A stretch of DNA of 64,000 nt. It comes from Escherichia coli O157:H7. Its GTDB lineage: Bacteria; Pseudomonadota; Gammaproteobacteria; Enterobacterales; Enterobacteriaceae. The stretch lies in NCBI RefSeq assembly GCF_013167455.1, contig NZ_CP038328.1. The stretch is one strand, 5' to 3'. Below the pieces are notes generated by a model that searched no databases, had not been told where the DNA came from, and worked only from the letters and a program-made list of their open reading frames with translations. Made by a program: the position numbers and the translations under genes. Shown here piece after piece: positions 16,602-17,455 of this stretch; position 1 is the stretch's first letter; each line of letters opens with the position of its first letter.

Positions 16602-16745
16602 TGGATGATGAAAAAAATAATTCCCGCCGTAGTCTGTTTGTTGCTTTGTAGTTGCACGACCTTTCCGCAAGCTGTCGCTCCGGTAAACGGTGATGCCTCC
16701 AATTAGTTGAATTAAGGATATAATACTCGCTTTTAAGGATGTTTC

Positions 16746-17018
16746 ATGGTCACAGTTAACCTTCATTGTCCCCGTTGCCAGTCCGTTCAGGTTTACCGTC
16801 GCGGGCAGAACCCCAAAAGACATGATCGATTCCGCGGCCGTGACTGTCACCGGGTATTTCAGCTCAGTTACTGTTACGAGCCCCGTAAACCGGGAGTTAA
16901 AGACCAAATCGCTGAAATGGCTTTCAACGGTGCCGGGGTTCGCTATACTGCCCGTACGCTGAAAATCGGCATTAATACAGTCATCCGAACTTTAAAAAAC
17001 TCTCGCCACGAAGAATAA
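16746..17018 (+). CDS. insA: IS1-family InsA-like protein
   Basis: 90-aa ORF with a CPRC...C..C zinc-finger-like N-terminus and HTH-like C-terminus, at the canonical position inside IS1; only distantly similar to InsA of IS1A as I remember it. Confidence 0.7.
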   Translation: MVTVNLHCPRCQSVQVYRRGQNPKRHDRFRGRDCHRVFQLSYCYEPRKPGVKDQIAEMAFNGAGVRYTARTLKIGINTVIRTLKNSRHEE

Positions 17019-17455
17019 CGTCATCCCCGGTCGCTCATGCTGATGTGGCACTCATCTGCAAACTTAGTCAGCAATGGAGCTTTGTCGGCAGTAAAGCGCG
17101 ACAGCACTGGCTCTGGTACGTGTACAACACGAAAACTGGTGGTGTTCTGGCCTACACTTTTGGCCCCCGGACTGATGAAACCTGTCGTGAATTGCTGGCG
17201 CTGCTTACCCTTTTACCATCGGCATGTTGACCACTGACGAATGGGGTAGTTACGCTAGAGAGTTACCAAAGGAGAAGCATCTGACTGGTAAGATTTTTAC
17301 TCAGCACATTGAGCGTAACAATCTGACCCTGAGAACCCGAATCAAACGTCTGGCCCGCAGAACCATCTGTTTCTCGAGTTCTGTAGAACTTCATGAAAAA
17401 GTCATCGGTGCTTTTATCGAAAATATATGTTCTACTAATTGGAGTCATCACCCTT
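17019..17455 (+). pseudogene. insB: IS1-family insB-like transposase region, disrupted by an extra frameshift
   Basis: InsB-like translation is split between 17045-17230 (...WSFVGSKARQHWLWYVYN...) and a different frame 17224-17538 (MLTTDEWGSYARELPKEKHLTGKIFTQHIERNNLTLRTR...), with the shift near 17205-17225. The second frame has lost its stop and reads through the right IR. Confidence 0.55.

Follow-up and report, generated by a model that had tools for sequence, protein, structure and literature searches.

A defective IS1H-type element at the yiiX-proximal end of an RhsF-type Rhs island in Escherichia coli O157:H7

Introduction

Insertion sequences of the IS1 family are about 0.77 kb long, carry imperfect terminal inverted repeats of about 23 bp that start with GGT(G/A)ATG, join insA to insB' at an A6C slippery motif, and are flanked by 8-9 bp target-site duplications. 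IS1A of E. coli K-12 makes such 8-9 bp duplications, and in IS1 the inverted repeats are the binding sites of InsA. IS1 also generates adjacent deletions and serves as a portable region of homology, and both outcomes, an adjacent deletion or recombination between IS copies, leave an IS without a duplication.

Besides IS1A, the closest systems are intact 766-bp elements found on E. marmotae pEM148, on the IncI-type Salmonella plasmid pSA20083530.1 and on K. variicola plasmids, whose products are annotated as 'IS1 family transposase' (e.g. WP_103194758.1). These relatives have an insA of 90 codons, a single -1 shift at the A6C motif, and an insB' that ends ...IEKYMFY-TAA within the right repeat, which yields a 231-aa InsAB'. 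They occur at up to seven matching places per record, and two of them carry 8-bp target duplications (TGGTAAGT and TGATTTTT).

The element described here lies in a 64,000-nt stretch of the O157:H7 contig NZ_CP038328.1 (assembly GCF_013167455.1), hereafter the window, where its neighbours are yiiX and an RhsF-type Rhs element. Jackson et al. included yiiX-priA among the rhs loci, and the genome paper of E. coli W (PMC3032704) lists one IS1H copy and places Rhs at b3936-b3937. The element itself is already known, as PGAP flags it as a frameshifted IS1/IS1H pseudogene.

Results

Extent of the element and its termini

The first-pass annotation of the window had reported an IS1-family element with near-perfect inverted repeats starting at position 16689. 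This start is borne out: the two terminal repeats match at 21 of 23 positions (Table 1), and shuffled sequences gave no chance matches. Its IS1-like size also holds, but the extent of 767 bp to position 17455 does not. Alignment with the intact 766-bp relatives places the right end, ...GTCATCACC, at position 17452, for a length of 764 bp; the arms of the inverted repeats run three bases further by chance (AAC/CTT), which gives 17455. The 767-bp query was a 100% match to E. coli O157:H7 chromosomes. Size and repeats are those of the IS1 family, but the target-site duplication of the family is missing from this copy: as noted previously, no 8-9 bp direct repeat is present at the ends of the element, whether the right end is set at 17452 or at 17455 (left flank CCGGTAAAC, right flank CTTCTGATG). 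Neither a second IS copy nor a remnant of an inverted repeat was found within the window, including at the far end of the island.

Table 1. Positions of the element, its parts and its neighbours in the window.
Feature	Position	Strand	Remark
yiiX	15993-16601	+	
5' fragment of TIGR02117/DUF2459 lipoprotein gene, 28 codons	16605-16688	+	lipoprotein signal peptide; cut by left end of IS
Whole defective IS1H-type (IS1 family) element, 764 bp	16689-17452	+	100% identical in O157:H7; PGAP 'IS1 family transposase, frameshifted'
IRL, left terminal inverted repeat	16689-16711	+	GGTGATGCCTCCAATTAGTTGAA
insA ORF, 90 codons	16746-17018	+	uninterrupted; Cys31-to-Gly
A6C slippery motif AAAAAAC, programmed -1 frameshift	16994-17000	+	invariant in all relatives and IS1A, same register
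insB' coding region	17000-17438	+	spread over three frames, by alignment to intact copies; PGAP pseudogene span 16746-17438
Codons 108-109, GAT GAG to AGT CAG	17064-17069	+	Asp-Glu to Ser-Gln, 'DEQW' motif
First 1-nt deletion	17208-17210	+	CCC versus CCCC in intact relatives
Second 1-nt deletion	17420-17423	+	AAAA versus AAAAA in intact relatives
IRR, right terminal inverted repeat	17430-17452	-	
Rest of island	17453-22127	-	AT-rich Rhs downstream DNA, dsORF-f3 and Rhs ORF
dsORF-f3	about 17508-17830	-	frameshifted in window
Rhs ORF, 1394 codons	17832-22016	-	

Relationship to IS1A, plasmid-borne relatives, iso-IS1N and IS1H

The opinion that InsA is only distantly similar to that of canonical IS1 was correct. 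Compared with IS1A, the window copy has 57% nucleotide identity overall, 39% amino acid identity across the repaired transposase and 37% within InsA. The two share their size (768 bp in IS1A versus 764 bp), GGTGATG... termini, -1 frameshifting between insA and insB' at A6C, and a stop codon inside the right repeat, but IS1A is intact and multi-copy, unlike the element described here. The plasmid-borne relatives are far closer, at 94% nucleotide identity (83% for Klebsiella) and 88-92% amino acid identity after repair. Architecture, repeats, A6C site and a stop within the right repeat are common to them and to the window copy; what sets them apart is a single programmed shift, an intact Cys4 ribbon and DEQW motif, several copies per replicon and, in the two cases given above, a target duplication of which the window copy has none. 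The iso-IS1N (IS1 nu) type belongs to the same divergent branch of the family, and a plasmid copy annotated as 'Insertion element iso-IS1n protein InsB' is about 86% identical; at about 14% nucleotide divergence, iso-IS1N is a separate named isoform.

Copies at the same yiiX-Rhs locus that are 98.8-99.1% identical to the window copy are labelled 'IS1-like element IS1H family' by PGAP. Set against these labelled copies, we detected no difference that would separate IS1H from the element described here, the O157 copy being 4-11 substitutions away from the copies of other strains. In several papers, such as those on EcoGene and K-12 ER2796, 'IS1H' probably denotes an ordinary copy of IS1 by its place in the K-12 chromosome, not this isoform, and such papers were left out of account here. 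The window element is most probably IS1H, a name that rests on the PGAP label and on one genome paper (PMC3032704).

Other defective members of this branch were also encountered. A different relative, 92% identical, 763 bp long and bearing frameshifts and an internal stop, is found in the chromosomes of E. coli WP2-S18-ESBL-08 and 25-07338, where it adjoins a transketolase fragment and a ProQ/FinO pseudogene. A truncated relative with 89% identity occurs in two plasmid sequences, one of 93 kb from cattle strain CV261 and one of 136.6 kb recorded for O157:H7 EDL933. This branch of IS1 has left several independent fossils.

Reading frames and inactivating lesions

The alignment of the window copy with intact relatives is gap-free except for two homopolymer columns, where one C and one A are missing (Table 1). 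As a result, the reading path passes from insA through the programmed -1 shift and then through two further -1 shifts caused by mutation. The earlier reading had called for one additional frameshift near 17205-17225; its location was right, as the first deletion at 17208-17210 lies in this interval, but its count was not, since the second deletion, at 17420-17423, had been missed. The same oversight accounts for the claim that insB' had lost its stop, which we reject. The ancestral TAA is kept at 17436-17438, inside the right repeat and only 16 nt after the second deletion, and the PGAP pseudogene ends there; the stop appeared lost because reading continued past the overlooked deletion in the wrong frame and ran into the flank. 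It had also been considered that the extra shift might be a programmed shift misread. As intact relatives, two of them with 8-bp duplications, need only one programmed -1 shift, the extra shifts are real mutations.

Two further lesions had gone unmentioned. The first, C31G, puts a Gly in place of the third zinc-ribbon Cys of InsA, which belongs to the second Cys pair (RFRGRDC versus RFRCRDC). The second, D108S/E109Q, strikes the 'DEQW' block, in which IS1A and the intact relatives show no variation. In light of IS1/IS1595 alignments, D108 is the presumed opening residue of the DDE triad. D108S would then presumably remove the first catalytic Asp, an assignment based on the invariance of the block, its spacing to the conserved TD(E/G)W and IER..L.LR blocks, and what is known of the family.

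When the two missing bases are restored, the frame-repaired InsAB' matches the Pfam domains Zn_ribbon_InsA (PF03811, 2.9e-17), HTH_Tnp_IS1 (PF12759, 1.3e-25) and DDE_Tnp_IS1 (PF03400, 5.1e-68), and it scores 242.6 bits against the NCBIfam IS1 equivalog NF033558, for which the cut-off is 100. At the sequence level, insA and insB' join at A6C as they do throughout the family, while the uninterrupted insB' and intact DDE triad of a functional member are lacking. Membership of the IS1 family by descent is secure, and the copy itself is a pseudogene. Still recognisable in it are both 23-bp terminal repeats, the 90-codon insA and the A6C site. Its decay is modest, because the repaired frame is without a premature stop, with the insA ORF still open, in each of the seven copies that we compared.

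The Rhs island and its surroundings

In the chromosome of O157:H7 PV15-279, the gene order is metL-metB-metJ-yiiX, the IS1 family transposase pseudogene ('frameshifted'), dsORF-f3, the Rhs ORF, rpmE and priA. Between yiiX and rpmE, the element was linked in the same arrangement to dsORF-f3 and the Rhs ORF in all six chromosomal loci and the one metagenome contig compared. GC content is about 30% at 17400-18200, which covers the Rhs extension and the downstream DNA, and about 62% in the Rhs core. The small dsORF-f3, immediately downstream of the Rhs toxin ORF, is probably its immunity gene.

Several differences between strains were seen around the island. The frameshift of dsORF-f3 in the window corresponds to a T6 at the T-run 17640-17645, versus T7 in TUM1223, which has an intact ORF of 107 codons; dsORF-f3 is also marked as a pseudogene by PGAP in O157 PV15-279. 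Within the AT-rich DNA downstream of Rhs, the window and the otherwise identical PV15-279 assembly differ in length by 1 nt at two homopolymer runs (C5 versus C4 at 17581-17585, and T4 versus T3 at 17685-17688); either genuine variation or an error in one assembly may be the cause. A second variable spot near the yiiX-rpmE locus is the metF-metL interval, where TUM1223 and KW21 have additional genes that are missing from O157 and K-12, namely a 1131-bp hypothetical gene that overlaps the end of metL and, in KW21, also a metallophosphatase/5'-nucleotidase gene.

The left joint and the alleles of the locus

The 87 bp from the yiiX stop codon to the element encode MMKKIIPAVVCLLLCSCTTFPQAVAPVN, a lipoprotein signal peptide. 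In KW21, EC50 and ATCC 8739 this fragment continues as an intact 624-bp gene of the TIGR02117/DUF2459 family (Pfam PF09601, NCBIfam TIGR02117) that fills the gap between yiiX and rpmE, and the 3' part of this gene is present in 288 genomes. The left end of the IS directly follows ...CCGGTAAAC of the TIGR02117 gene, where the next bases in KW21 are AATGACTTTG, and is the exact point at which the O157 allele departs from the intact-TIGR02117 allele. The earlier suggestion that the element marks an island boundary or a former recombination joint is borne out by this position. To the right of the IS stands CTTCTGATGAGC, which is Rhs downstream DNA; the other 543 bp of the TIGR02117 gene are absent from the window, and not until CAGGCACAAAAAAAGCGCC, near 22128 and ahead of rpmE, is the sequence again homologous to the K-12 and KW21 alleles.

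A 316-nt query in which the two flanks of the element were joined had no contiguous match in any of 5426 genomes, which rules out a simple insertion of the IS at an empty site. A target duplication is absent because the present flanks were never neighbours, one flank having been replaced. The IS thus marks the left joint of a 5.4-kb replacement, in which the IS and the Rhs cassette stand in place of most of the lipoprotein gene. We infer as the most likely route that the truncated gene came to abut the Rhs cassette either by an adjacent deletion of the IS1 type or by recombination of one IS copy with another.

No intermediate allele, with IS1H inside a full-length TIGR02117 gene or with Rhs downstream DNA extending past the IS, was found. 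One candidate was strain Crooks (ATCC 8739), for which a partial IS1H and Rhs have been described at this locus (PMC3032704), but in the assembly of this strain the locus holds an intact TIGR02117 gene and nothing else. A search for diverged copies of the Rhs downstream DNA that extend past the IS junction also found none; the region is single-copy and at least 95% identical, with one weak partial match.

Three alleles of the yiiX-rpmE interval (16602-22127 in the window) were distinguished: IS1H with RhsF in about 2170 genomes, the intact TIGR02117 gene in 288 genomes (ATCC 8739 and a strain derived from B among them), and, in K-12, a spacer of 60 bp. In the last 13 bp ahead of the shared rpmE terminator, K-12 is closer to O157 than to the TIGR02117 allele, a hint that the K-12 spacer may have been derived from an Rhs-bearing allele by deletion.

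Distribution, age and selection

We compared seven copies of the element, from the O157 window, TUM1223, 3CM (mink), E597 (dog), S21, 2-1 (pig) and one metagenome contig. All seven have identical junctions, both deletions, C31G, D108S and E109Q, and they differ from one another by 1-14 positions per 764 bp. The lesions arose once and have since been inherited with the locus. A copy with at least 95% identity was found in 2176 records, and about 40% of the complete genomes of E. coli carry the element. The adjoining 379 bp on the right side (the dsORF-f3 region) are single-copy in 2170 genomes and at least 95% identical in all but one, which gave a weak partial match. Comparison with the same locus in related strains, which the first-pass annotation had proposed as a check, thus agrees with its portrayal of the element as an old, inactivated iso-IS1 that is part of the island: seven assemblies share junctions and lesions, and the 2176 records with the element stand beside 2170 genomes with the RhsF flank.

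Plasmid copies have at most 94.1% identity, apart from two of 98.7% in the plasmid collection; these two fall in records of 4.8 and 1.0 Mb, whose sequence looks chromosomal. IS1H-type sequence thus occurs essentially only as this one fixed copy attached to Rhs. Among 100,044 species-representative genomes, the sole exact match to a 24-mer across the left junction was a contig of 2.2 kb that resembles E. coli and had been binned in a Lachnospiraceae MAG, and this exact-match scan found the junction in no other Escherichia species representative, which suggests that the junction event is specific to E. coli. The contig in question, SFGN01000258.1 (2240 bp), is 98.6% identical to positions 16188-18426 of the window (yiiX-IS1H-dsORF-f3) and almost certainly entered the bin as contamination from E. 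coli.

The dN/dS ratio is 0.32 between the fossil and its close intact relatives, and 0.06 between distant intact members of the family. Nine replacements versus five synonymous changes were fixed on the stem of the fossil, and the polymorphic codons within E. coli comprise 10 nonsynonymous and 7 synonymous ones. By these measures, selection on the element is relaxed. In strains 98209 and CUVET25-1275, the fossil IS1H is split by an insertion annotated as IS1F, so that it matches in two pieces over 1543 bp; in those strains, a live IS1 has landed inside a dead IS1H.

Discussion

We conclude with high confidence that the element is a fossil IS1H copy that forms, as a fixed part, the yiiX-proximal end of an RhsF-type Rhs island and is inert as a transposon. 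Its transposase would be disabled by the two 1-nt deletions in insB', by C31G in the zinc ribbon and by the change from Asp-Glu to Ser-Gln in the first DDE block. None of the data gathered contradict this conclusion.

The reading frames invite the objection that both extra shifts arose as errors of sequencing or assembly and that the element is an intact, potentially active relative of IS1. Both deletions do fall in homopolymer runs (CCC and AAAA), which are typical sites of error, and another O157 assembly differs by two homopolymer indels in the adjacent 380 bp. However, the same two deletions recur in all seven copies, which were sequenced independently and come from different strains and hosts, one of them being a metagenome contig; PGAP flags the frameshift in every genome examined, and C31G together with D108S/E109Q would disable the protein regardless. 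Sequencing error as the explanation is effectively refuted, and we give it hardly any weight. The good preservation of the terminal repeats, at 21 of 23 positions, could likewise be taken to mean that an IS1 inserted recently and independently in the O157:H7 lineage, with its duplication since erased by point mutation. Such an insertion is refuted by the junctions, which are identical in unrelated E. coli strains; moreover, the two 9-bp flanks have no similarity to one another, the right flank is Rhs DNA instead of the rest of the interrupted TIGR02117 gene, and about 40% of complete genomes carry the element. We grant a recent arrival no more than a negligible chance.

It is also conceivable, if very improbable, that the dead transposon has been co-opted, with the DNA-binding InsA protein acting on the retained repeats and, for example, regulating transcription at the end of the Rhs/dsORF-f3 unit. 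That insA is uninterrupted in all seven copies, that both inverted repeats are kept, and that the locus persists in about 2170 genomes would be in keeping with such a role. Against it, a Cys of the zinc ribbon is lost (C31G), linkage to Rhs accounts for the persistence, and insA, with four nonsynonymous and four synonymous polymorphic codons and five fixed replacements on the stem, bears no sign of purifying selection. Taking two bolder readings together, we see a slim chance that either insA and both repeats form a co-opted DNA-binding module at the RhsF end, or the IS was the vehicle by which the Rhs cassette was captured and swapped for the DUF2459 gene. Were the latter true, IS1 would have mediated the acquisition of a polymorphic-toxin locus, and the left repeat would be its preserved scar.

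For the element as an inert fossil of IS1H, the significance lies mainly in correct annotation; it is a named IS isoform, already flagged as a frameshifted pseudogene by annotation pipelines. The case also shows how an overlooked second homopolymer deletion can make a gene seem to have lost its stop codon. Beyond annotation, the end of the IS pinpoints where the Rhs cassette joins the chromosome, and the element can be used as a marker: as the identity of its junctions and lesions shows, the allele combining RhsF with IS1H arose once, and that allele now segregates in E. coli against the intact TIGR02117/DUF2459 gene and the 60-bp spacer.
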